A stretch of DNA of 10,015 nt from Candidatus Ozemobacteraceae bacterium (GTDB lineage Bacteria > Muiribacteriota > Ozemobacteria > Ozemobacterales > Ozemobacteraceae): contig JAGOCE010000136.1 in assembly GCA_017998915.1 (NCBI GenBank), forward strand, positions 1 through 10,015. Direction: 5' to 3'. The position numbers and the translations under genes are program-made. Each line of letters starts with the position of its first letter. Positions within the stretch are counted from its first letter, which is position 1. Below are positions 1-10,015 of the stretch, in pieces. The notes under the pieces are model-generated. The model was not told where the DNA came from, did no database searches, and was given only the letters and a program-made list of their open reading frames with translations.

Positions 1-1
1 G

Positions 2-391
2 ACGTGCATCGACGAAACAGCCCGCCGGCGCGAGATCCAGGATCGGTACAACAGGGAACATGGCATCGAGCCAGCCTCGATCGTGAAGAAGCTGCCGAAG
101 ATCTTTCTCCCCGGCCAGGAAGGCGGCGAACAGGGGGCAGGCGGTAAAATCGACCAGGATCGCCTTGCCGAACTGGTCAGAGAGCTCCAGGCCGAGATGG
201 ACAAGGCCGCCCGCGAGCTTCAGTTCGAGCGCGCCGCGATGATCCGTGACGAGATCATCGCCCTCCAGGACGAGCATCTCGAAGCCGATGTCCTCATGGG
301 CCTCGGAAAAGCGCTCCGCTCCGGCCGCGACAGAAGCATGGCCAAGAAACGCAACTCCCGACGCTCCCGTTCCCCGCAGAAACCGGGCTGA
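2..391 (+). CDS. uvrB: Excinuclease ABC subunit B (UvrB), C-terminal fragment including the UVR domain; 5' end lies outside the window
   Basis: Frame-2 translation from position 2 reads TCIDETARRREIQDRYNREHGIEPASIVKK..., matching the conserved UvrB C-terminus (RRRE.Q..YN.EHGITP). It is followed by a UVR-domain-like helix, ELQAEMDKAARELQFERAAMIRDEIIALQ. Stop codon at 389-391, followed by a G/C hairpin. Confidence 0.85.
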   Translation, partial: TCIDETARRREIQDRYNREHGIEPASIVKKLPKIFLPGQEGGEQGAGGKIDQDRLAELVRELQAEMDKAARELQFERAAMIRDEIIALQDEHLEADVLMGLGKALRSGRDRSMAKKRNSRRSRSPQKPG

Positions 392-408
392 TATCCCCCC
401 GAACGAAC

Positions 409-437
409 GCCGGGGCGGGTTTGAAGCCCGCCCCGGC
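409..437. terminator. Perfect 11-bp G/C stem (GCCGGGGCGGG / CCCGCCCCGGC) with a 7-nt loop, between convergent uvrB (+) and the 454..1083 (-) gene. Likely a bidirectional intrinsic terminator without a U-tract, as is common in high-GC genomes
   Basis: Inverted repeat read directly: 409-419 gccggggcggg, loop tttgaag, 427-437 cccgccccggc. It sits 18 nt after the uvrB stop and 17 nt after the minus-strand gene stop. Confidence 0.55.
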
Positions 438-453
438 GCGTGGTGTCGGGAGA

Positions 454-1083
454 TCAGCGAGTCGGTTTGAGGGGTTTGTTGAACACGTCGAAGGGAATGT
501 CTTCCTTCAGCTCGGTTCGCAGGAACGTGAGAATGTCCATCGAGAGGGAACGCATCTTCTCGCTGTCGGTCCAAAACAGCTCGAACACGACACGTTCGGC
601 CTCTTTGCGCAGAGCAGCGAGGTTCGTCGAGTGGTGGTTGATCTTCAGGTTCTCGATGTGCGAGGCGATCTTGTAAAACTCGGCGCTGATCAGCTCGGGA
701 CCTTCGGGTGAATCATCGAATCCCTTCGGGAAGTTTGGATACTTCTCGCAAAATTCTATTTCAGCCGCTATATGGCGAAACAACGCGGGTTTGTCCTCGA
801 GACCCATCCGGACAGCCAGCAAGTGAGCCGCGACAACCCGGGGATCGTCGTTCTTCTTCGCATACTGGAGCGCGGCCACGAGGTCGTTGATGCCGGCATA
901 CGCCGAGTTGATCGAGCCGCAGGTATACAGCATCTTCTTGAGAACGACCTGTTTCGTGAGCTGGTACGGATCACGATGCAGTGCCGCAAACTCGGGGGTC
1001 ACCGCCCCGGCGGGCGCCTCAAATGACAATGCGAACACCATGACGAAGATTCCGACCATCGACGCAATCGCTCGTTTACCCAT
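454..1083 (-). CDS. Hypothetical secreted protein with an N-terminal signal peptide (MGKRAIASMVGIFVMVFALSFEAPAGA). The longest ORF extends to 1149
   Basis: Minus-strand ORF with high GC3 over most of its length. The textbook n/h/c signal-peptide arrangement begins at the internal Met (ATG at 1083-1081). The 22 codons upstream of that Met have GC3 of only about 50%, versus about 74% downstream, so 1083 is the favoured start. No recognisable family. Confidence 0.55.
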   Translation of the reverse strand: MGKRAIASMVGIFVMVFALSFEAPAGAVTPEFAALHRDPYQLTKQVVLKKMLYTCGSINSAYAGINDLVAALQYAKKNDDPRVVAAHLLAVRMGLEDKPALFRHIAAEIEFCEKYPNFPKGFDDSPEGPELISAEFYKIASHIENLKINHHSTNLAALRKEAERVVFELFWTDSEKMRSLSMDILTFLRTELKEDIPFDVFNKPLKPTR

Positions 1084-1161
1084 GTATGCATTGTACACAC
1101 CAATGCCCTGATTGGCAACCCGCCCACCAATCCGTCCAAAGACGCTCATGGTCGTGAGCGC

Positions 1162-2211
1162 CTATGGCAACGGCTTGTGGGGATTCGAGGCGTGGTCGAC
1201 GAGACGATCGAGTTCGGAACGGAGTTTTCGGAGTTCCTCGACGCGCCCGTTGAGAACGAGATACTGGAAATTCGGGTTTCGGAAGATTTCCATCTTCCGG
1301 AAATCCGGCTCGAGAAACCACCCTTCCGTCAGACGCTGGATCAACATGTTTGCAGGAGCAATCAGAAGAGCGACCGCAAAAGAAGGAAGAATCTGGGCCC
1401 ACCAGGAAGTTTCGTCGATATACTTCTGAAGATCGTTCTGGAGAATGTTTTCGACAGTTTTATACAGAGCCGCCGTTCCCAGGGTCAACAGCATGTAATA
1501 CACTCCGGTGCCGATGACCACGTCGATATCGATCAGCTTGAATCGCATCGTGGCGTACACCACGATGATCATGAACGCGAGAGTCGCCAACTCGACGATC
1601 GGGAACTCGAACACCCAGAAGATCTGATGCCTCAACAGCATGTCGTGAAGGGCGCACAGGCAGTAAAATGCTTCGCCGAGCAGGATGAACTCCACCCTGC
1701 GGCGCATCATCTCGTCCTCGTGCGTCAGGCGCGCTTTGACGAGCCGGTATGCAATCCGTATCAGGAGCACGCCCATGACGAAGGCATACGCCTTCATGAG
1801 CGGCCCGCCGATCGCCAGCGGGCCGTCGGGCGTCATTTCGAGTCCCGATCGGAAAATCATCTCGGTCGGCAATGCCGCGAGGAACACGGCGGTCGCAGCC
1901 CATGCGAGCCCCCGCGTCCTCTTGTTCGCGTATCTGCCTTCGAGAACGGCATCTGGAAACTCGGCCAGCAAGGGAATCAGCAGGATCGTGCCTATCCATC
2001 CGGCTCGCACGAACCAGATCGTCGGCAGAACAAAAAACAGCACCTGGAAGACGTTGTACAGCATCGATGCCGTCGCGATGCCCGCAATGACGCGGTTAAC
2101 CGGCTGGTGTCGAGCCCGCGCCAGGACGAACCAGGCCACGAGCCCCGAAATGCCGGCCGAGATCATCGACGTGGCCAAGCGCAGGGTGGGTGTCAGCACG
2201 ATATCTTCCAT
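1162..2211 (-). CDS. Polytopic inner-membrane protein with about 8-9 predicted TM helices and an approximately 70-aa charged, coiled-coil-like cytoplasmic tail. Function unknown, possibly a sensor or transporter-like protein
   Basis: ORF 1162..2307. The preferred start is Met33 (MEDIVLTPTL...), preceded by GGAGG 7 nt upstream (reverse complement of 2212-2225: ggaggaatggcATG). There are multiple hydrophobic segments of about 20 aa each. The tail reads ...RVEELRKLRSELDRLVDHASNPHKPLP. The + strand antisense ORF 1177..2370 translates to a low-complexity D/E/H/R-rich sequence and is rejected. Confidence 0.75.
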   Translation of the reverse strand: MEDIVLTPTLRLATSMISAGISGLVAWFVLARARHQPVNRVIAGIATASMLYNVFQVLFFVLPTIWFVRAGWIGTILLIPLLAEFPDAVLEGRYANKRTRGLAWAATAVFLAALPTEMIFRSGLEMTPDGPLAIGGPLMKAYAFVMGVLLIRIAYRLVKARLTHEDEMMRRRVEFILLGEAFYCLCALHDMLLRHQIFWVFEFPIVELATLAFMIIVVYATMRFKLIDIDVVIGTGVYYMLLTLGTAALYKTVENILQNDLQKYIDETSWWAQILPSFAVALLIAPANMLIQRLTEGWFLEPDFRKMEIFRNPNFQYLVLNGRVEELRKLRSELDRLVDHASNPHKPLP

Positions 2212-2295
2212 GCCATTCCTCCGGGCCCATCTAAGCACGAGTGGCTCTCTCCGTGCAACAAGACGGATACGGTTCGGCACCGATTTTTCCGGGGC

Positions 2296-2324
2296 TTGCC
2301 AAGGCATACGACATGTGGTATGTT
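2296..2324 (+). promoter_or_regulatory. Candidate sigma70-type promoter, TTGCCA-17 bp-TATGTT, with a second TTGACA hexamer at 2341-2346. Predicted transcription start near 2331
   Basis: Read directly: 2296-2301 ttgcca, 17-bp spacer, 2319-2324 tatgtt. It lies in an approximately 330-bp region of lower GC between divergent genes. Confidence 0.35.
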
Positions 2325-2565
2325 TCTAGTAGAGGCTGGTTTGACAATCATGTCCCTGCGCTGTCCGTGATGATGCAGGTTTAATTGAGCCGACACCTGT
2401 ATCTAGAGGGAATCTGTCTTCAACCCCCGCTGAGATCCCCTTACGAACAGGATCACTCCTGTTACGAAGACCTCATTGTGAGGCTGAGCAGACAACCGTT
2501 TACCGCGAGGTTAGGGTTCAATTGTCCTTCACACGGCAGAGGCGGGGGCCTACCCGCACCTCAAC

Positions 2566-2601
2566 GAAGCCGCCGGTAGTTTTCCGGCGGCTTCGTCTTT
2601 T
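2566..2601 (+). terminator. Rho-independent terminator on the + strand. Perfect 11-bp stem GAAGCCGCCGG / CCGGCGGCTTC, loop tagtttt, then GTCTTTT
   Basis: Inverted repeat 2566-2576 / 2584-2594 followed by the T-rich tract 2595-2601. On the opposite strand the hairpin is not followed by a T-run, so it is orientated for + strand transcripts, 40-90 nt upstream of the next + ORF. Confidence 0.6.
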
Positions 2602-2643
2602 CCCACGGTCCATGGCTCCCGAGGCGCGAGATACCGGTAATTT

Positions 2644-3747
2644 TTGTTCTGGGTGTTGCCTTTCGCCGTCCAGGTGGGTATATTTACCCCCATCATGAAG
2701 GCACGCCCTCTTCTCATCGCATCCGAAACGCTCAAAGCCGCCGATCTCATTGCTCCGCCCTTCGGACTCGAGCCCGAAGAGTTCATGCTGACCAGACTCG
2801 AGTCTCTGAATGTGATGGGGTTTGCGCGTTTCGCCGCCGTCGTGATTCATGAACCGCCTGCCGACCTGTTTCGCAGGTTGTCCCTCGGACTCCGCGACCG
2901 CCCTGATGCTGAAGCGCTCTGGTCACTTATTTCGCAGGCTCGATCCGTACCAGTTTACGTGCTGTCAGCCAAGATAGAGCGCCCCCCCACGGAACTTTCC
3001 GATCTCGGCATCGGTACAACCTTGCCCCAGCGACTTCGCGAACTGTGCGCCACGCCCGCAGCCTTCGCGCTTGACGGTTCCGGACCTTCGGTTTCCGCCG
3101 CTTCTTTGCTGACCGCCGATGATGTACGGGCCATGCATCTGAAGGGTGTGAAGACGCTCGACGAGAACACCCCGATGACCGACTGGGCCAGGGAAACGGC
3201 GACCGCGCTCGGCATCAGGCTCACGCCGGCAGCTTCCCGCCGCGTTCTGATTCCCGTCGAAGCCCGGGGCGTCAGGCACCTGGCGAGCTTCGGCGAGCTT
3301 TTGCACGGTTTCGCATCGTTCCCGCTCGCGCCGCTGTTCGTCGTTGCGGAGCCCCTCATGCCGGCGTTCAACGAGCTTTTCCCGTCGCTGCGCGGCAGGC
3401 TCGTCGCGCCAAGCATCCACTGGGAGAAACAGGGCGCCTTCACGGGTGAAATATCACTTGCTATGGCGCTCGATCTCGGGTGCGAGGGTGCGATCGTCCC
3501 CGATCTGCCGGCGTATGCTGAGCCGAAGCGATTCGCGCAGTTGTGCGCCGCCGCGGCTGGAAAGCAGTTTTCGCTTTATGTGCCCTCCCCCCTTGCCGCC
3601 CGGGATTGTTGTGCTATAATTGGCAACCGGATCTTCCGGCTCACGGATGGCCGGGGCCGCTCCGCATCGGAGCTGCCGAAAGACGGAGCCCTCATCATGA
3701 AGGGCTGCGAACTCGAGAAGATTGTCCAGGAAAGGAACAAGCCGTGA
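2644..3747 (+). CDS. Hypothetical protein whose C-terminal half carries a degenerate triosephosphate isomerase (TIM)-like segment. Possibly a decaying or pseudogenised TIM-family gene of the BMC locus. The start is uncertain (TTG 2644 or ATG 2695)
   Basis: Residues about 199-285 (nt 3238-3498) read RRVLIPVEARG...APLFVVAEPLMPAFNELFPSL...VAPSIHWEKQGAFTGEISLAMALDLGCEGAIV. This is co-linear with the TIM N-terminal region (KFFVGGNWKMNG...VVCAPP.AY...GAQN..K..GAFTGEIS..ML.D.G...V.LGHSERR). However, the catalytic N/K (GNWK) and H (GHSERR) positions are replaced (PVEA; PDLPAY) and the protein ends well short of a full barrel. GC3 is about 80% in the middle of the ORF but only about 65% at both ends, versus about 80% in neighbouring genes. 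A consensus extended -10 promoter lies inside the last 150 nt. The stop overlaps the pduL GTG start (GTGA). Confidence 0.4.
   Translation: MFWVLPFAVQVGIFTPIMKARPLLIASETLKAADLIAPPFGLEPEEFMLTRLESLNVMGFARFAAVVIHEPPADLFRRLSLGLRDRPDAEALWSLISQARSVPVYVLSAKIERPPTELSDLGIGTTLPQRLRELCATPAAFALDGSGPSVSAASLLTADDVRAMHLKGVKTLDENTPMTDWARETATALGIRLTPAASRRVLIPVEARGVRHLASFGELLHGFASFPLAPLFVVAEPLMPAFNELFPSLRGRLVAPSIHWEKQGAFTGEISLAMALDLGCEGAIVPDLPAYAEPKRFAQLCAAAAGKQFSLYVPSPLAARDCCAIIGNRIFRLTDGRGRSASELPKDGALIMKGCELEKIVQERNKP
3593..3620 (+). promoter_or_regulatory. Near-consensus sigma70 promoter, TTGCCG-16 bp-TGcTATAAT (extended -10). It probably drives the BMC operon from about 3627, giving an approximately 117-nt leader before pduL
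   Basis: Read directly: 3593-3598 ttgccg; 3612-3620 tgctataat (TGnTATAAT). The region is locally AT-enriched within otherwise 65% GC DNA. Confidence 0.5.
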
Positions 3748-4388
3748 TCGACGAAGCCAATGTCAAGACCATCGTAGCCGAAGTGCTCAAGCACATCGAT
3801 CTCCAGGAACGCATCCGCCCCGGAACCGTTCCAGCCGGCGTCAGCGGCCGCCACATCCACGTCTCCCAGGCCGATCTCGAAACCCTGTTCGGGGCCGGGT
3901 ATCAGCTCAAGGAAATGAAGAAGCTTTCCCAGCCCGGCCAGTTCGCGGCTGAAGAGTGCGTCATGCTCGTCGGCCGCAAGGGTGTCATCGAGAAGTGCCG
4001 CATCCTCGGGCCGGTCCGGCCGGCGACGCAGATCGAGATTTCCGGCACCGACAGCTTCACGCTCGGCGTGCCGATCGTCTATCGCGACTCGGGCGACACC
4101 AAGGGGACCCCCGGCGTCATCGTCGTCGGCCCAAAGGGCCACGTGGTATTGAAAGAAGGCATCATCGTCGCCAACCGCCACGTGCACCTCAGCACGAAGG
4201 AAGCCGAGAAGATGGGCCTGAAGGACATGGACCGGGTCACGGTCAAGACACAGGGTCCGCGCGCGATCGCGTTCCAGAACGTTCTGGTGCGCGTCAGCGA
4301 CAAGTTCGCCGCCGATTTCCACGTCGACAACGACGAGGGGAACGCCGCCGGCCTCAAAACGGGTGATATGGTCGAGATCGTCCGCTGA
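3744..4388 (+). CDS. pduL: PduL-type phosphotransacylase (phosphate acyltransferase, EutD/PduL family) with an N-terminal encapsulation-peptide-like amphipathic helix
   Basis: Two PduL repeat signatures: ...VSGRHIHVSQADLETLFG... and ...VANRHVHLSTKEAEKMGL.... The GTG start at 3744 is preceded by AGGAA (3731-3735) and overlaps the upstream TGA. The N-terminus, VIDEANVKTIVAEVLKHIDLQE, resembles BMC encapsulation peptides. Length of about 214 aa is typical for PduL. Confidence 0.88.
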   Translation: MIDEANVKTIVAEVLKHIDLQERIRPGTVPAGVSGRHIHVSQADLETLFGAGYQLKEMKKLSQPGQFAAEECVMLVGRKGVIEKCRILGPVRPATQIEISGTDSFTLGVPIVYRDSGDTKGTPGVIVVGPKGHVVLKEGIIVANRHVHLSTKEAEKMGLKDMDRVTVKTQGPRAIAFQNVLVRVSDKFAADFHVDNDEGNAAGLKTGDMVEIVR

Positions 4389-4466
4389 TCACGACCACCA
4401 CATAGGTTTTAGGTTTTTCGACACACGGTACACATTTCTGACAAGCCAAAATCTCAGGAGGACGTC

Positions 4467-4763
4467 ATGCAGGAAGCTCTGGGTATGATCGAAACCAAAG
4501 GTCTGACCGCTCTTATCGAAGCCACCGACGCGATGGTCAAAGCCGCCAACGTGAAGCTCGTCGGCTGGGAAAAAATCGGTTCCGGGTATGTGACCGCCTT
4601 CGTGCGCGGTGATGTCGCCGCCGTCAAAGCCGCCACCGACGCCGGTGCCGCCGCCGCCAAGAAGATCGGCGAGCTGATCTGCGTCCACGTGATTCCGCGG
4701 CCGCACGGCAACCTCGATGAGGTCATGCCGATCCGCGACAACACCCAGACCTCCAAGAAGTAA
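4467..4763 (+). CDS. BMC-H hexameric shell protein (Pfam00936; PduA/CcmK/EutM-like)
   Basis: The N-terminus, [33 protein letters not shown], is near-identical in pattern to PduA/EutM. AGGAGGA RBS at 4455-4461. 98 aa. Confidence 0.95.
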
Positions 4764-4783
4764 TCCGGGGAAATCGTCGAGTC

Positions 4784-5065
4784 ATGAATCTCGGTCGAGT
4801 CTGCGGAACCGTCGTCTGCACGCGAAAAGAAGAGCGGCTCAACGGCATGAAGTTTCTGATCGTCGAGGAACTGACGATCGAGCGCAAGCCGACGGGCCAC
4901 TTCGTCGTCGCCGTGGACGCGGTCAGCGCCGGAGCGGGCGAAACCGTACTGCTGGTCAGCGGCAGCTCGGCTCGCCTCACCGAGCGCACCCTGAACTGCC
5001 CGGTCGACGCAGCCGTCGCGGCCATCGTCGATTCGGTCGTGATGGACCACGAACGCACGACCTGA
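4784..5065 (+). CDS. BMC-P pentameric vertex protein (Pfam03319; EutN/PduN/CcmL-like)
   Basis: MNLGRVCGTVVCTRKEERLNGMKFLIVEEL... matches the EutN/PduN N-terminal pattern (M.IARVIGTVVST.K...L.G.KLL.V). 93 aa. Lies 20 bp downstream of the BMC-H gene. Confidence 0.9.
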   Translation: MNLGRVCGTVVCTRKEERLNGMKFLIVEELTIERKPTGHFVVAVDAVSAGAGETVLLVSGSSARLTERTLNCPVDAAVAAIVDSVVMDHERTT

Positions 5066-5092
5066 CCCCCGGCGGACTCCTTTGATCGATCT

Positions 5093-5129
5093 CCCGGCCC
5101 CGCGCATCGTTTTTCGCGCAGGGGCCGGG
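5093..5129 (+). other. Intercistronic G/C-rich stem-loop (CCGGCCCCGCGC / GCGCAGGGGCCGG) with a T-rich loop, between the BMC-P and aldehyde dehydrogenase genes. Possible partial terminator or RNA-processing element
   Basis: Imperfect inverted repeat read directly. No downstream U-tract. Confidence 0.3.
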
Positions 5130-5184
5130 GGTCGTGTGGTCCGCCGGCCATACAGACAGCAAGCCTCACGGCACGGGGGAACGA

Positions 5185-6603
5185 ATGTCCATTTCTCGTG
5201 ATGAGCTGGGCGTCATCGTCCAGGAAGTCCTCAGGAACCTGAAAGCATCCGGCACGGTCGCCACCGCCGTCACGCGGGCGGCGGAGCCTTCGGGCAAAGG
5301 CGTCTTTGAAAATATAGAAGACGCTATTAAGTCAGCCGTCGACGCCCAGAAGAAGCTCGTCGAGCTTCCGGTCGCCCTGCGCAAAAAGATGATCTCGAAC
5401 ATGCGCAGCCGCTGCCTCGCGAAGCTCGAGGAGCTCGCCCGCCTCGGCGTCGAGGACACCGGCTACGGCCGCGTCGATGACAAGCTCCAGAAAAACCGGC
5501 TCGCCATCACGAAGACACCCGGCATCGAAGATCTCCAGCCCGTGTCGTATTCGGGAGACGACGGTCTGACGCTCGTCGAACAGGCCCCTTACGGTGTCAT
5601 CGGGGCCATCACCCCCTCGACCAACCCGTCCGAGACGATCATCTGCAACTCGATCGGCATGATCGCGGCCGGCAACGCCGTCGTGTTCGGCCCCCACCCC
5701 GGCGCAGCGAAGATCAGCCGATTCACCGTCGAACTGCTGAACGAAGCCGTCATCGAGGCGGGCGGACCCGCCAATCTGATGACGATGGCCTCGAAGCCGA
5801 GCATCGAGAACGCGCAGATCCTGATGACCCACCCGTCGATCCGGCTGCTGGTCGTGACCGGCGGCCCCGCCGTGGTCGCCGCCGCCGCCAAGTGCGGCAA
5901 GAAATACATCGCCGCCGGTCCGGGCAACCCGCCCGCCGTCGTCGACGAGACGGCCGACCTGAAAAAAGCCGCGCGCGATATTATATCCGGCGCCACACTC
6001 GACAACAACGTGCTCTGCATCGCCGAGAAGGAAATCATCGTCGTCGAGTCGGTCGCCGAGGAGCTGAAGCGGCATCTGCGCAACAGCGGGGCCTACGAGG
6101 CGTCGGCGCGAGAGATCATCCAGCTCGAGAAGCTGGTGATCGACCCGAAGACAGGCGGCCCGAACCGCAAGTTCGTCGGCAAGAACGCCGGCTACATCCT
6201 CGAGCAGATCGGCGTGCGCGTCCCCGATGACATCCGCATGGTGTTGTGCGAAACGGGCCCCGACCACCCCTTCGTCGTCGAAGAGTTGTTGATGCCGGTC
6301 ATCCCGCTGGTGCGCGTGCGCGACGTGAACGCCGCCATCGATCTGGCCGTCAAGGTCGAGCACGGCAACAATCACACCGCCGTGATGCACAGCCGCAATA
6401 TCGACAACCTTCATCGCATGGCTGTTCGGTGCAACTGCTCGATCTTCGTGAAGAACGGCCCGAGCTATGCCGGCCTGGGAATGGGCGGCGAGGGCTATAC
6501 AACCTTCACGATCGCCTCCCCCACCGGCGAAGGCCTGACCAGCGCCCGCACCTTCACACGCCAGCGTCGCTGCGTCATCGTCGACAGCTTCCGAATCGTT
6601 TGA
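5185..6603 (+). CDS. CoA-acylating aldehyde dehydrogenase (PduP/EutE family) with an N-terminal encapsulation peptide
   Basis: The N-terminus, MSISRDELGVIVQEVLRNLKASG, is amphipathic and encapsulation-peptide-like, followed by a linker. The core motifs CNSIGMIAAGNAVVFGPHP and ...TLDNNVLCIAEKE (catalytic Cys) match EutE/PduP. RBS GGGGGAA before the ATG at 5185. ORF track start 5134 is in frame, but 5185 fits the RBS and the encapsulation-peptide pattern. Confidence 0.92.
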   Translation: MSISRDELGVIVQEVLRNLKASGTVATAVTRAAEPSGKGVFENIEDAIKSAVDAQKKLVELPVALRKKMISNMRSRCLAKLEELARLGVEDTGYGRVDDKLQKNRLAITKTPGIEDLQPVSYSGDDGLTLVEQAPYGVIGAITPSTNPSETIICNSIGMIAAGNAVVFGPHPGAAKISRFTVELLNEAVIEAGGPANLMTMASKPSIENAQILMTHPSIRLLVVTGGPAVVAAAAKCGKKYIAAGPGNPPAVVDETADLKKAARDIISGATLDNNVLCIAEKEIIVVESVAEELKRHLRNSGAYEASAREIIQLEKLVIDPKTGGPNRKFVGKNAGYILEQIGVRVPDDIRMVLCETGPDHPFVVEELLMPVIPLVRVRDVNAAIDLAVKVEHGNNHTAVMHSRNIDNLHRMAVRCNCSIFVKNGPSYAGLGMGGEGYTTFTIASPTGEGLTSARTFTRQRRCVIVDSFRIV

Positions 6604-6610
6604 GACAACA

Positions 6611-6762
6611 CACCACAGAGTCACAGAGACACAGAGGCCCTATTTCTCTCAATCCTGTAGCTCCGCGGTGAATATGATGAAAATCGCAAGATTTACAGCA
6701 GTTCGATCTTTGTATCCTTGTGGTGAATGATCTCTGTGTCTCTTTGCCTCTGTGGTAAACCA
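6611..6762. repeat. Long-range inverted repeat spanning the aldDH-pduS intergenic region: CCACAGAGTCACAGAGACACAGAG (6611-6634) pairs with CTCTGTGTCTCTTTGCCTCTGTGG (6738-6761). It encloses an AT-richer core with promoter-like TTTACA-15 bp-TGTATCCT
   Basis: 22 of 24 positions are complementary between the arms. The right arm contains the motif CTCTGTGTC-n7-CCTCTGTGGTAAA, which is repeated at 8859-8888. Confidence 0.5.
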
Positions 6763-6812
6763 GGGGAAACTCTCACGGACGATTATTGAATACTTCGAAA
6801 CGGATCAGGAAC

Positions 6813-8126
6813 ATGGGTGATATTGCAGTAGCGGAACTTGGGTTGGTGGGGTGCGGGGGCGCGGGATTTCCGACGCATGTGAAGCTTGCGGCGCAGAACG
6901 TCGATCACCTGATCGTGAACGCTGCCGAGTGCGAACCCCTCCTCCACAAGGACAAAGAGATCCTCAAGCACGCAACGGACGAGTTTTTCAAAGGCCTGAT
7001 CCGATCGATCGATCTCACGAGGGCAAAACAGGCGCATATCGCGATGAAGCGCAAATATGCCGATCTGCTTGAAACGCTCGAAAAGGCGATTCCCGACAAG
7101 CGGATATCGATGCTGCCCCTCGGCGACTTTTACCCGTCGGGCGATGAATACGAACTGGTATATGAAGCGAGCGGCCGGCTGATCCCGTTCGGCGGCATTC
7201 CGCTGCACGTCGGGTGCGTCGTCAGCAATGTCGAGACGCTGCTGAACCTCGGCCGCAACCGGCCGGTCACGACGAAGATCCTGAGCCTTGCGGGCGCGGT
7301 TCCCAACCCGATGACCGTCGAAGTGCCCGTCGGCATCACGGTGTTCGAGGCCCTTTCCCTTTCGGGCCTGAAATCGCTCGCCGGCCTGACGGTGATCGAC
7401 GGCGGCCCGATGATGGGGCGGCTCGTGCGCGATCCGCAGACCGATGTCGTCACGAAGACCACCGGCGGCCTGATTGCGCTTCCCAAAGATCATCCCCTGA
7501 TTCGACGGATGGTGACGCCAGAGGCCCACAACAGGCAGATCGCCCGTTCGGCCTGCGACCAGTGCACCGACTGTTCCGAGCTCTGCCCCCGTGCGCTTCT
7601 CGGGTATCCCATTCGGCCGCACAAAGCGATGAGGACAGCCCAGCTTGCCCCGTTCAACGACCAGAATTATTCGCGCGATTCAATCTTCTGCAGCGAGTGC
7701 GGACTCTGTTCGCTGTTTTCCTGCCCCGAAGGCCTGCCGCCGCGTGAGATGTGCCAGATGGCGAAGCGCCACCACCTGTCCCACGGTGTCAAGCCGACCG
7801 ACTGGAAGGACGCTCCGCAGGTTCACCCGATGCGAGGCCAGCGCCGCGTGGGAATCGAACGGCTGATCAAGCGTCTGGGCTTGCTCGATTACGACCACAA
7901 GGCTCCCTGGACAACCATCCAGACACGATTCGAGAGAGTCAGACTGCCGCTGAAGATGCATGTCGGGGTGCCGGCCGAGCCGGTCGTCCGCGTTGGCGAC
8001 ACCGTCAAGGTCGGCCAGTTGATCGGTGCCGTACCCGACAAGAAGCTCGGCGCGCCCGTGCATGCATCGATCAGCGGCCGCGTCACCAGCGTCGATTCCG
8101 GCGCCATCGTCATTTCCAGGGCATGA
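6813..8126 (+). CDS. PduS/RnfC-like Fe-S flavoprotein (NADH dehydrogenase 51-kDa-subunit-like domain plus two 4Fe-4S ferredoxin motifs). BMC-associated oxidoreductase
   Basis: GxGGAGFPTHVK motif (LVGCGGAGFPTHVKL). Two CxxCxxCxxxCP clusters (CDQCTDCSELCP; CSECGLCSLFSCP). AGGAA RBS before the ATG at 6813. The upstream TTG at 6786 is a less likely start. Confidence 0.88.
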   Translation: MGDIAVAELGLVGCGGAGFPTHVKLAAQNVDHLIVNAAECEPLLHKDKEILKHATDEFFKGLIRSIDLTRAKQAHIAMKRKYADLLETLEKAIPDKRISMLPLGDFYPSGDEYELVYEASGRLIPFGGIPLHVGCVVSNVETLLNLGRNRPVTTKILSLAGAVPNPMTVEVPVGITVFEALSLSGLKSLAGLTVIDGGPMMGRLVRDPQTDVVTKTTGGLIALPKDHPLIRRMVTPEAHNRQIARSACDQCTDCSELCPRALLGYPIRPHKAMRTAQLAPFNDQNYSRDSIFCSECGLCSLFSCPEGLPPREMCQMAKRHHLSHGVKPTDWKDAPQVHPMRGQRRVGIERLIKRLGLLDYDHKAPWTTIQTRFERVRLPLKMHVGVPAEPVVRVGDTVKVGQLIGAVPDKKLGAPVHASISGRVTSVDSGAIVISRA

Positions 8127-8159
8127 AGCAGCCCCTGAACCAGAACTGAGAGAACCGCC

Positions 8160-8717
8160 ATGAACATCTCGCAGAATGCCATCGGCCTCGTGGAACTGTC
8201 CAGTATCGCCATGGGCTACCAAACGACCGACGCCATGCTCAAGACCGCATCGGTCGAACTCGTCCTCTCACGCACCATCTGCCCGGGCAAGTTCATCGTC
8301 ATGGTCTGGGGCGATGTGGCGGCCGTCGAGGCGAGCGTCGCCGCAGGCGTTCGCGTCGGCCAGGGGTATCTCGTGAACGATCTCGTCATTCCCAACCTGC
8401 ATCCCCAGATCTACCCGGCGATGACGGCAACCAACCCGATTCCCGAGACGGATGCGCTGGGCGTCGTCGAGACGTTCGACGTCGTCTCGACGATCCTCGC
8501 GGCCGATGCATCGGCCAAGGCTGCCGACGTGCAGCTCGTCGAGATCCGCATTGCAATGGCGATCGGCGGCAAGGCGTTCTACACGATGACCGGCGACGTC
8601 GCCGCCGTCGAAGCCGCCGTGGCGTCAGGGCTGAACGTGCTCGAGGGCCGCGGCCAGGTCGTCTACAGCGTCGTCATCCCGCGCCCCCGCCCCGAACTCT
8701 TCCGCGAGTTCATTTGA
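8160..8717 (+). CDS. BMC-T tandem-domain shell protein (two Pfam00936 domains; PduT-like)
   Basis: Two BMC-domain repeats: IGLVELSSIAMGYQTTDAMLKTASVELV... and LGVVETFDVVSTILAADASAKAADVQLV.... 185 aa. Confidence 0.9.
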   Translation: MNISQNAIGLVELSSIAMGYQTTDAMLKTASVELVLSRTICPGKFIVMVWGDVAAVEASVAAGVRVGQGYLVNDLVIPNLHPQIYPAMTATNPIPETDALGVVETFDVVSTILAADASAKAADVQLVEIRIAMAIGGKAFYTMTGDVAAVEAAVASGLNVLEGRGQVVYSVVIPRPRPELFREFI

Positions 8718-8768
8718 GAGACACAACGGGAACAGCTTCAGCACAGAGAACACAAAGAGCACTGAGTT

Positions 8769-8888
8769 CTCACAGAGAACCGCTGTTTTCTGGTAATAGT
8801 CTTAATGCTGTATAATATAAACTTTACTTATACAAGCGGTTGTTTTTCTCTGTGAAACCTCTGTGTCCATTGTGTCCTCTGTGGTAAA
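8769..8888. repeat. Second copy of the intergenic element (BMC-T to rpiB spacer): CACAGAG repeats after the stop, an AT-rich core containing TGTATAAT, and the motif CTCTGTGTC-n10-CCTCTGTGGTAAA at 8859-8888
   Basis: The motif is shared with 6731-6759. Partial inverted complementarity exists between CACAGAGAACCGCT (8771-8784) and AGCGGTTGTTTTTCTCTGTG (8835-8854). Confidence 0.45.
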
Positions 8889-8926
8889 GTTTTTGGTGCT
8901 CGAAATTGCATTTGATGGAGATGGGT

Positions 8927-9391
8927 ATGCCGAAGATCGTGATTGGGGCTGATCATGGCGGGTTTCCGCTCAAGGAGGAGCTGAAGAAGCACCTGGCTAC
9001 GGCCGGCCACACGGTCGAGGACGTCGGCGCCTTTTCGACCGATCCGGTCGATTATCCCGATATCGCCTGGCTCGTGGCCAACGCGGTCGCGATGAATCCG
9101 CACACGCTCGGCATCGTCATCGACGGGGCGGGCATCGGCTCCTGCATGGCCGCGAACAAGGTCCCCGGCGTGCGGGCTGCCTGCTGCAACGATCTCTACA
9201 CCGCGCGCAACAGCCGCGAGCACAATCACGCGAACTTGCTCACCCTGGGCAGCATGGTGATCGGCCCCGGCTTGATGAAGCAGATCGTCGACCTCTGGAT
9301 CTCCACCCAGCCCGCTCCCGGCCGCCACGCCGCCCGCGTCGCCAAGATCACGCGCCTCGAGTCGCTGGGTGCACCGCCTCAGAAGGTATAA
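8927..9391 (+). CDS. rpiB: Sugar-phosphate isomerase of the RpiB/LacAB family (ribose-5-phosphate isomerase B-like)
   Basis: MPKIVIGADHGGFPLKEEL...GIVIDGAGIGSCMAANKVPGVRAACC...REHNHANLLTLGS...GRHAARV is co-linear with E. coli RpiB (KIAFGCDHVGF...GILICGTGVGISIAANKF.GIRA..C...RQHNDTNVLAFG...GGRHQQRV). GGAG RBS before the ATG at 8927. Confidence 0.88.
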   Translation: MPKIVIGADHGGFPLKEELKKHLATAGHTVEDVGAFSTDPVDYPDIAWLVANAVAMNPHTLGIVIDGAGIGSCMAANKVPGVRAACCNDLYTARNSREHNHANLLTLGSMVIGPGLMKQIVDLWISTQPAPGRHAARVAKITRLESLGAPPQKV

Positions 9392-9484
9392 CTCCTTCCA
9401 ATTTCCTTTTGTGAACAGACTTTCCAGGCGAATTTTCTACGTCTCGGGGAAGAGGTTGCATGAAATGTGGTATCATTTCTTGTG

Positions 9485-9742
9485 ATGCCTACCGTTCTCA
9501 TGATTTACGGCTGGAGATTCTTTTTCTACGCGAACGAGCGCAATGAGCCTATTCATATTCATTGCAAAAGCGGAGACAAGGAATGCAAATACTGGCTCGA
9601 CTGCGACGATTTTGACGCAATTGAAGCCTATTCGTACAATATGAGCCCTTCAGACAAGAGGCTCGTCAAGAAGCTGATTTTCGAATATTTCGAACTCATC
9701 GAGAATTCATGGAAAGAATTTCAAGAGAGAAAGTCTTTATGA
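9485..9742 (+). CDS. DUF4160-family small protein (about 85 aa) in a low-GC island. Function unknown
   Basis: MPTVLMIYGWRFFFYANERNEPIHIHCKSGDKECKYWL matches the DUF4160 hallmark (MPT...GyRFfFYsNE.nEP.HiHv...g.eaKfWL). Local GC is about 42% versus about 65% upstream. Its stop overlaps the next gene start (ATGA). Confidence 0.78.
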   Translation: MPTVLMIYGWRFFFYANERNEPIHIHCKSGDKECKYWLDCDDFDAIEAYSYNMSPSDKRLVKKLIFEYFELIENSWKEFQERKSL

Positions 9743-9999
9743 ATAAGAGTCACATAATCCAGGATGTTCGTTTCACGAACGGAACCATGCAGATCATGAT
9801 CGATGGAAAACCGTATGAGTTCAAGCTCAATGCTGTTTCTTCAAAATTATCTGAAGCCACCGTTGAGCAAAGAAATGCCTTTGAAGTTTCACCTTCGGGT
9901 TATGGCATCCACTGGCCGCTGGTCGATGAAGATCTTTCGATCGACGGGTTATTGAATATTTCCCATGCGCTTCCGGTAAAAAAGACGAAAGCGGCATGA
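9739..9999 (+). CDS. DUF2442-family small protein (about 86 aa), translationally coupled to the DUF4160 gene
   Basis: ...MIDGKPYEFKLNAVSSKL...GYGIHWPLVDEDLSIDGLL matches the DUF2442 C-terminal pattern (I.WP..DeDls.d.L). Its ATG at 9739 overlaps the upstream TGA, with a purine-rich RBS, GAGAGAAAG, before it. The alternative in-frame start at 9709 lies inside the upstream gene. Confidence 0.75.
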   Translation: MNKSHIIQDVRFTNGTMQIMIDGKPYEFKLNAVSSKLSEATVEQRNAFEVSPSGYGIHWPLVDEDLSIDGLLNISHALPVKKTKAA

Positions 10000-10015
10000 A
10001 TCAAGGAGCGAAATA
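9996..10015 (+). CDS. 5' end of a third small gene (MNQGAK...), translationally coupled by a second ATGA overlap. Runs off the window
   Basis: The ATG at 9996 overlaps the TGA at 9997-9999. Only 6 codons are visible. Confidence 0.3.

Follow-up and report, generated by a model that had tools for sequence, protein, structure and literature searches.

Pairs of adjacent small genes encoding DUF4160 and DUF2442 proteins have recently been defined as DhiTA, a family of toxin-antitoxin (TA) systems belonging to type II. In Dickeya dadantii 3937 the dhiTA locus (DDA3937_RS07415/RS07420) carries the DUF4160 toxin gene first, overlapping the DUF2442 antitoxin gene (PMC8198452, Table 1); DhiT inhibits the growth of both Dickeya and E. 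coli, co-expression of DhiA abolishes this effect, and the dhiTA promoter is repressed by about 50% by DhiA alone and by 70-99% by the complex (PMC8198452). A DUF4160/DUF2442 pair of 87 aa and 92 aa carried by a Thermus thermophilus plasmid, the "Persistence Enhancing Module", promotes plasmid persistence; a plasmid lacking the second open reading frame (ORF) could not be introduced, one lacking the first could, and the pair had no effect in E. coli (PMC12724237). The DhiTA of the Bacteroides thetaiotaomicron prophage Wilby 1, whose toxin is mildly toxic in E. coli with rescue by the full system, has been proposed to maintain its carrier element (bioRxiv 10.64898/2026.06.25.734096), and in the Menshen antiphage system DUF4160 is among the effector domains (NsnC proteins), DUF2442 being noted as its usual partner (PMC12065111). 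In this work we analysed a DUF4160/DUF2442 pair located at positions 9392-10015 of a 10,015-nt stretch of DNA of Candidatus Ozemobacteraceae bacterium (GenBank assembly GCA_017998915.1, contig JAGOCE010000136.1), the whole of which is referred to as the window. This tract of low guanine plus cytosine (GC) content is probably a self-contained TA cassette of the DhiTA type, which was inserted long ago between two genes of a bacterial microcompartment (BMC) locus and has been retained there.

The window pair shares with Dickeya dhiTA the two Pfam domains, the toxin-first order, an overlap of a few nucleotides and proteins of about 80-90 aa, as well as a chromosomal location and vertical inheritance within its clade. 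It differs in being distant in sequence, in belonging to another phylum (Riflebacteria), in lying inside a metabolic operon and in that toxicity, neutralisation and autoregulation are predicted for it by analogy. The Thermus module, which behaves as an addiction module, is alike in domain pair, order and size, but it sits on a plasmid, downstream of a rep gene; the window pair has a chromosomal place between rpiB and deoB. The Wilby 1 system, likened here by description and not by sequence, is prophage-borne, while no phage genes surround the window pair. In Menshen the DUF4160 of NsnC is fused into a multi-domain defence protein, whereas the window DUF4160 is a stand-alone protein of 85 aa with a dedicated antitoxin. 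The initial annotation of the window had considered the function of such pairs not to be established; now that members of the family from Dickeya, Thermus plasmids and a Bacteroides prophage have been tested, this view is outdated, and the suspected resemblance to TA modules turned out to be real family membership.

A probable toxin-antitoxin pair of the DhiTA family

As initially annotated, the tract holds two small genes joined by an ATGA overlap. Both are on the forward strand and start with ATG, the DUF4160 (DhiT-like) toxin gene at 9485-9742 (85 aa) and the DUF2442 (DhiA-like) antitoxin gene at 9739-9999 (86 aa); the ATGA at 9739-9742, common to both, serves as toxin stop and antitoxin start, and the overlap is kept in two related lineages described below (L005 and L009). 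Profile searches placed both proteins in the families first proposed for them: the toxin scored 56.5 bits against Pfam DUF4160 (PF13711; E = 3.2e-15, cutoff 23) over profile positions 1-65 of 65, and the antitoxin 60.7 bits against DUF2442 (PF10387; E = 1.6e-16, cutoff 23.9). Some gene callers choose the ATG at 9709 as antitoxin start (96 aa), but the start was set at 9739 because 52 aligned homologues begin at that methionine, M1 being nearly invariant.

Against the NCBIfam equivalog model of DhiT (NF048015, toxin_DhiT) the toxin aligned over its full length with a score of 18.7 bits (E = 0.0019) for a cutoff of 100, and it is therefore a distant member of the family and not an equivalog or orthologue of DhiT. 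Homologues encoded on plasmids (Salmonella/enterobacterial, Legionella and Erwinia) also reached merely 19-21 bits on this model, and the enterobacterial ones were for this reason dropped as a route to a true DhiT equivalog.

In an alignment of 12 toxins (the window, L005, three metagenomic own-clade or subfamily-like relatives, four plasmid and three viral-contig members) the residues M1, P2, L5, R11, F12, F14, Y15, E18, H24, H26 and K35 were invariant, H24 and H26 falling within a predicted strand at residues 23-29. Being charged and rich in histidine, the invariant Arg/Glu/His-x-His/Lys residues may form a catalytic site or bind metal, as in an enzyme, and a nucleic-acid-directed hydrolase would be our guess. 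A search of the sequences of solved structures with the toxin returned noise alone (E of 0.47 or more). A structural model of the antitoxin (pLDDT 75) resembles two DUF2442 entries, 3K8R from Rhodospirillum rubrum and 2X8N (CV0863) from Chromobacterium violaceum, with a Foldseek TM score of about 0.65 and phmmer E values of 2-3e-4; these share the fold and sequence family of the antitoxin, and their entries give no function or partner.

Two side observations concern the toxin gene. In L003 (Logan SRR31702755), a contig 99.6% identical to the window, a 1-bp deletion at window position 9590 (L003 position 1530; AAATAC to AAA-AC) shifts the toxin out of frame about 35 codons in, and what the gene caller predicts there is a 52-aa fragment. 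L003 and the window differ at seven places over 1955 bp, three of them in the cassette. The deletion may reflect either a faulty assembly or a toxin-null allele that occurs in nature. In some JGI records DUF4160 proteins of 84-85 aa (P0005, P0090 and P0092) are labelled "formylmethanofuran dehydrogenase subunit A", apparently a misannotation propagated from one metagenome record to others.

Filled and empty sites in related genomes

The left host neighbour of the cassette is rpiB (ribose-5-phosphate isomerase B) and the right one deoB (phosphopentomutase). Four contigs from other samples (L001-L004) are 99.6-99.9% identical to the window, and relatives at 84-85% antitoxin identity with retrievable contigs gave two further lineages, L005-L008 (several metagenomes, one of them labelled Ca. 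Ozemobacteraceae) and L009-L011 (GCA_964389325.1). All three lineages, which are separated by a synonymous divergence (dS) of about 0.25-0.65, carry the arrangement rpiB-DUF4160-DUF2442-deoB at the identical site. In pairwise comparisons (Nei-Gojobori) dS was 0.24-0.27 for the toxin gene, 0.36-0.52 for the antitoxin gene and 0.33-0.66 for BMC-T, rpiB and deoB, with ratios of nonsynonymous to synonymous divergence (dN/dS) of 0.07-0.14, 0.18-0.22 and 0.04-0.11 respectively. Both cassette genes are under purifying selection, and the divergence of the cassette is of the same order as that of its flanks. A short tract of about 620 bp, conserved at the same site in three diverged lineages, is therefore an old resident and not the border of an island.

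Empty sites were found by a search with DeoB, taking one genome per species, which returned other Riflebacteria. In L012, L013, L014 (HGW-Riflebacteria-2) and L031 (Ca. Ozemobacter sibiricus BY5) BMC-T, rpiB and deoB are consecutive and the cassette is absent, the rpiB-deoB spacer being non-coding and 100-380 nt long. As rpiB stands directly before deoB in these more distant Riflebacteria, their adjacency is ancestral and the cassette has been inserted between them, so that it lies inside the locus and not, as had been supposed, immediately after it. Just past rpiB an identical 9-pair terminator-like hairpin, GGGGTTCAACATGTTGAACCCC, is present in L012 (828-849) and L014 (3761-3782).

Some further features of this spacer may be recorded. 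Ahead of deoB both L012 and L014 carry short tandem GATTAC/GAGCAC-like repeats. In L015 (Ca. Riflebacteria bacterium MM_PC_MetaG.mb.182) the spacer is occupied by another insert, 2.7 kb long (1262-4000), which has two ORFs (346 and 402 aa) on its minus strand and lacks a TA pair; insertion at this spot has therefore happened independently and is tolerated.

A sliding comparison of the three lineages showed the window and L009 to be closest over most of the locus, with identities of 0.88-0.97, those to L005 being 0.72-0.94. The three lineages are approximately equidistant between about 8570 and 10046, a region covering the spacer ahead of rpiB, rpiB itself and the cassette, and from deoB onward the usual pattern is restored. 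Recombination may thus have moved rpiB together with the cassette between relatives, in a tract whose right end is at the junction of cassette and deoB. A similar patch was seen at about 5724-6323.

Extent and composition of the low-GC tract

The drop in GC content after rpiB, from which the initial annotation started, is real. In 200-nt windows GC is 0.66-0.675 at 9000-9399, across rpiB, and 0.40-0.45 at 9400-9999; overall it is 0.429 for 9392-10015 versus 0.607 for 1-9391. In a 16.6-kb composite, made by joining the window to the near-identical contig L003, the 9392-10015 region is the lowest-GC stretch of 600 nt, and beyond the cassette GC goes straight back to 0.58-0.65. The foreign tract thus measures about 620 bp and consists of a 93-nt leader and the two genes, with nothing else. 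That its GC merely reflects host non-coding composition is not supported, given that host spacers average 0.53-0.57 and the cassette 0.42-0.44. A second low-GC stretch of the window (about 0.42-0.45 in 200-nt windows) coincides with the 209-nt spacer between BMC-T and rpiB (8718-8926). Between lineages no other part of the locus is less conserved (identity 0.69-0.73). This spacer also has a terminator-like hairpin (8766-8780) and is probably a boundary between transcription units of the locus.

The composition of the cassette (9485-9999 in the window, 9747-10261 in L005 and 9777-10291 in L009) differs at all codon positions from that of its neighbours. Third-position GC (GC3) is 0.43-0.54 in the cassette genes and 0.62-0.90 in the other called genes (18 in L009 and 16 in L005), and the GC of first and second positions is also lower than in the neighbours in both L005 and L009. 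Across 49 relatives with enough flanking sequence the GC of the cassette follows that of its host (r = 0.89, slope 0.95) at a mean of 0.07 lower. On a measure using 3 kb on either side the contrast in the window amounts to -0.158; it is not the largest of all, being surpassed by one of the 49 relatives.

Lineage-specific changes at third positions were polarised by the majority state of the three lineages, a three-taxon parsimony with small counts. The cassette had 17 AT>GC and 19 GC>AT changes at 85 AT and 87 GC sites, and the flanks 50 AT>GC and 113 GC>AT changes at 85 AT and 609 GC sites. AT>GC changes per AT site were thus about three times rarer in the cassette than in the flanks (0.20 vs 0.59; Fisher p = 3e-7), the implied equilibrium GC3 is 0.48 vs 0.76, and AT>GC changes make up 47% of the cassette changes where 76% are expected under the flank rates (binomial p = 2e-4). 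The cassette therefore shows no drift toward host GC despite having spent the whole of this divergence between GC-rich genes. The cause may be a lack of selection on the codon usage of TA genes, selection for AT-richness or re-seeding by recombination.

Family distribution and search for island features

Relatives of the toxin at 60-75% identity number in the hundreds and were found in metagenomes across many phyla. In 76 of the 80 toxin-relative loci that were fetched the next gene downstream, on the strand of the toxin gene and for the most part overlapping it, encodes a DUF2442 protein, and in none of the 80 is rpiB, deoB or a BMC gene found beside the cassette, which indicates that the pair travels as a context-independent unit. 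More distant relatives occur on 32 of 72,556 plasmid records, often in surroundings resembling integrative and conjugative elements (ICE) or Tn3, as well as on two of 50,697 phage records and 11 IMG/VR contigs. Of the phage, plasmid and island contexts which had been attributed to the pair, the link to phages, with these 2/50,697 records and 11 IMG/VR loci, is weak.

Features of an island gained recently (phage, plasmid or defence), which would adjoin the BMC locus at the GC drop and continue downstream, were looked for in the flanks. A tRNA scan of L003, L005 and L009, reaching about 6.6-10 kb downstream of the cassette, found none; direct repeats flanking the cassette were short chance matches alone, differing between lineages; and no integrase or transposase family appeared in the Pfam lists of the neighbouring called genes. 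Integrase, tRNA and direct-repeat boundaries had been proposed for inspection by the initial annotation. PADLOC models did not match either protein even at E of 1 or less. With 620 bp and two genes the tract does not qualify as a genomic island or integrative element. Of the idea of a horizontally acquired insertion, then, the insertion itself and its foreign composition stand, and empty sites exist; the island border and the recent gain do not.

Leader, regulatory elements and the junction with deoB

The AT-rich leader of the cassette (9392-9484, forward strand; 93 nt, GC 0.43) takes the place of the rpiB-deoB spacer of relatives. It is 93-96 nt long in the three lineages, where its 3' block AAATGTGGTATCAT is invariant. 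No conserved terminator was found in it, the single hairpin (9382-9398) having five pairs and no conservation; the predicted RNA fold of 9375-9500 was not notable (z-score -0.99), and an Rfam scan of 8500-10015 gave nothing near a gathering score. Within the AAATGTGGTATCAT block lies an extended -10-like promoter element, TGGTATCAT (9468-9476, forward strand), which is invariant in the window, L005 and L009. It ends 8 nt upstream of the toxin ATG without a Shine-Dalgarno (SD) sequence between, a spacing which suggests that the toxin mRNA may be leaderless or nearly so. Many of 69 metagenomic relatives have, when read by eye, a GTGACA-like box, 17 nt and TGGTAnnAT, followed by a leader of 25-30 nt with an SD sequence. 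An imperfect inverted repeat, CATGAAATG / CATTTCTTG (9459-9482; I5), with 9-nt arms that are 89% complementary and 6 nt apart, straddles the -10 element and is a weak candidate for the operator of an autorepressed promoter.

HigBA, HicAB and MqsRA are toxin-first type II systems in which, as in the window pair, the antitoxin is translationally coupled to the toxin, and in MqsRA extra internal promoters supply antitoxin. Their protein folds are unrelated to those of the window pair. A sigma-70-like match inside the toxin gene and upstream of the antitoxin (9612-9640; TTGACG-17-TACAAT, 10/12) was considered as an antitoxin-only promoter and rejected as a feature of the family, because in 75 relatives the synonymous codons concerned (F43 TTT and N52 AAT) are no commoner there than at other places in the genes; lacking this support from codon conservation, it differs from the MqsRA arrangement and is probably due to chance.

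The sequence past the end of the window was taken from L001 and L002, near-identical contigs that continue. The ATGA at 9996-9999, which had been read as the start of a third coupled gene, is present, but the ORF (9996-10015, forward strand) reads ATG AAT CAA GGA GCG AAA TAA, that is MNQGAK and a stop, and overlies the AAGGAG of deoB. It has six codons in the window and five in L009, and in L005 it stays open and continues into deoB in the same frame; at the junction of the three lineages the SD sequence alone is conserved and not the mini-ORF. The third gene is accordingly rejected as an artefact of the window end. The real next gene is deoB (383 aa; TIGR01696, 448.7 bits for a cutoff of 341.2; NF003766, 507 bits), which starts at 10016, one base past the window end, and is host-like in composition (GC 0.61, GC3 0.79). 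The spacer between the antitoxin stop and deoB is 16 nt long (17 nt in L005 and L009) and holds AAGGAG at 10003-10008, so that the SD sequence of deoB begins 3 nt past the antitoxin stop. Because no terminator and only these 16-17 nt separate the two genes, deoB is most likely transcribed together with the cassette now. In L005 (10258-10281) the ATG at the antitoxin-stop ATGA is in frame with deoB with no intervening stop, and this lineage could make a DeoB that is seven residues longer at its N terminus and whose translation is coupled to that of the antitoxin.

The microcompartment locus

Upstream of the cassette the window encodes a PduL-type phosphotransacylase, BMC-H, EutN, an aldehyde dehydrogenase, an RnfC/PduS-like flavoprotein, tandem BMC-T and rpiB. 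The latter (8927-9391, forward strand; 154 aa from ATG 8927, the start used by gene callers on L001, L003 and L005) scored 169.6 bits with Pfam LacAB_rpiB and 149.5 bits with TIGR01120 and has a GC of 0.654 and a GC3 of 0.865. The neighbours of the cassette in general are BMC genes, deoB, CarboxypepD_reg, TGT and QueA. At the head of the BMC gene row a 367-aa ORF (2644-3747) has a short weak match to triosephosphate isomerase at residues 250-285.

Sugar-phosphate utilising (SPU) loci consist of shell proteins and an aldehyde dehydrogenase with the signature enzyme DERA, and frequently include RPI (accessory), PTAC, PduS-like and TPI-like proteins (PMC11585597, Dwyer et al.); deoB supplies deoxyribose-5-phosphate, their presumed substrate (PMC11585597). 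In the present locus BMC-H, BMC-T, EutN, AldDH, PTAC, an RnfC/PduS-like protein, rpiB and the weak TIM match are seen, and the locus may be of the SPU type. The label is kept tentative because DERA (PF01791) had no match among the ORFs scanned.

Discussion

Taken as a DhiTA-type cassette, the tract could work as follows. A promoter-like element of its own would drive the toxin gene first and the antitoxin gene second, the two being coupled through the ATGA. By analogy with the tested family members, the DUF4160 protein would arrest growth, the DUF2442 protein would bind and neutralise it, and the complex would repress the cassette promoter. The cassette would have landed in the non-coding rpiB-deoB spacer in the common ancestor of a subgroup of the Ozemobacteraceae (Riflebacteria) and would since have been kept in place under purifying selection. 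Most probably it serves as a selfish addiction module, hard to lose, which as a side effect would stabilise the operon segment that carries it.

Several points weigh against this interpretation. The functions of this pair are predicted from its genes and its family; at 18.7 bits for a cutoff of 100 the toxin is far from the Dickeya proteins, the antitoxin has no match among the NCBIfam models, and the toxin fold yields no mechanistic clue. The candidate promoter and operator were picked out by their resemblance to a consensus, and a simple sigma-70 scan did not call TGGTATCAT, because it has no -35; the inverted repeat at 9459-9482 is poorly conserved, being partly kept in L005 and L009. If the deletion in L003 is real, some strains live with the antitoxin alone. 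Finally, long retention without compositional drift is unlike the behaviour usually expected of a purely selfish passenger and leaves room for a role that benefits the host.

Alternatively, the pair could act mainly as an abortive-infection module, directed against phages, instead of a plain addiction element. A defensive action against phages is established for many families of type II TA systems. DUF4160 is an effector domain of Menshen, and DUF4160/DUF2442 pairs have been grouped with toxin systems (PMC12065111). On the other hand, neither protein is matched by a PADLOC model, as stated above, the neighbours are metabolic genes and not a defence island, and phage resistance conferred by a stand-alone DUF4160/DUF2442 pair is absent from PMC8198452, PMC12065111, PMC12724237 and the Wilby 1 preprint. 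We consider this role unlikely.

The cassette could also have been domesticated, the host now needing the pair to express or control deoB, or else the microcompartment pathway; the autoregulated TA promoter and coupled translation might, for instance, have taken over from the terminator and promoter of deoB itself and so link the supply of deoxyribose-5-phosphate to the TA state. Empty-site spacers hold, besides the terminator-like hairpin, a TTGCAT-17-TATATT box ahead of deoB (read by eye); the clade of the window has lost both hairpin and box and has the SD sequence of deoB directly behind the antitoxin stop without a terminator, and in L005 the ATGA at that stop is in frame with deoB. Retention under purifying selection, the absence of GC amelioration and the supply by deoB of the presumed SPU substrate (PMC11585597) fit this scenario as well. 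However, read-through from upstream suffices to explain deoB expression, rpiB having no conserved terminator; members of this subfamily of cassettes were seen in 80 contexts unrelated to it, all of them free of BMC, rpiB or deoB genes; the mini-ORF at the junction is not conserved; and any active TA system shows purifying selection on both genes. Domestication thus appears improbable. More doubtful still is its specific form in which the autoregulated TA unit, having replaced terminator and promoter, would be the entry point for deoB expression and would be kept AT-rich by selection. If this were true, the supply of deoxyribose-5-phosphate to the microcompartment would be wired to the state of the TA system, and a domesticated TA system within an organelle operon would exert metabolic control.

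The sharp GC change at 9392 and the distant relatives of the pair on plasmids, in ICE-like regions and on a few viral contigs could point to the border of an island gained recently. This view is highly improbable, since the low GC stops after about 620 bp at a host-like deoB, the three diverged lineages have the cassette at one and the same site with a dS like that of its flanks, tRNA genes, consistent direct repeats, integrases and transposases are missing from the neighbourhood as searched, and chimeric assembly of the near-identical contigs is unlikely across four independent samples.

An old, retained DhiTA-type cassette remains the probable explanation, and with it an annotation trap is corrected, the apparent island border being a 620-bp TA cassette inside an operon. 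Through this analysis the DhiTA family, itself defined recently, gains a member from the Riflebacteria. What is understood at present of TA systems and of microcompartments is unchanged by it, the genomic context and the non-ameliorating composition being the sole unusual points. The composition poses a small puzzle, namely what keeps TA cassettes compositionally distinct, with substitution patterns unlike those seen in genes that lie within a few hundred bases of them. The context provides a clean natural example of filled and empty sites, in which a TA system was inserted between rpiB and deoB, genes of a microcompartment locus with linked functions, and its retention extends across species.

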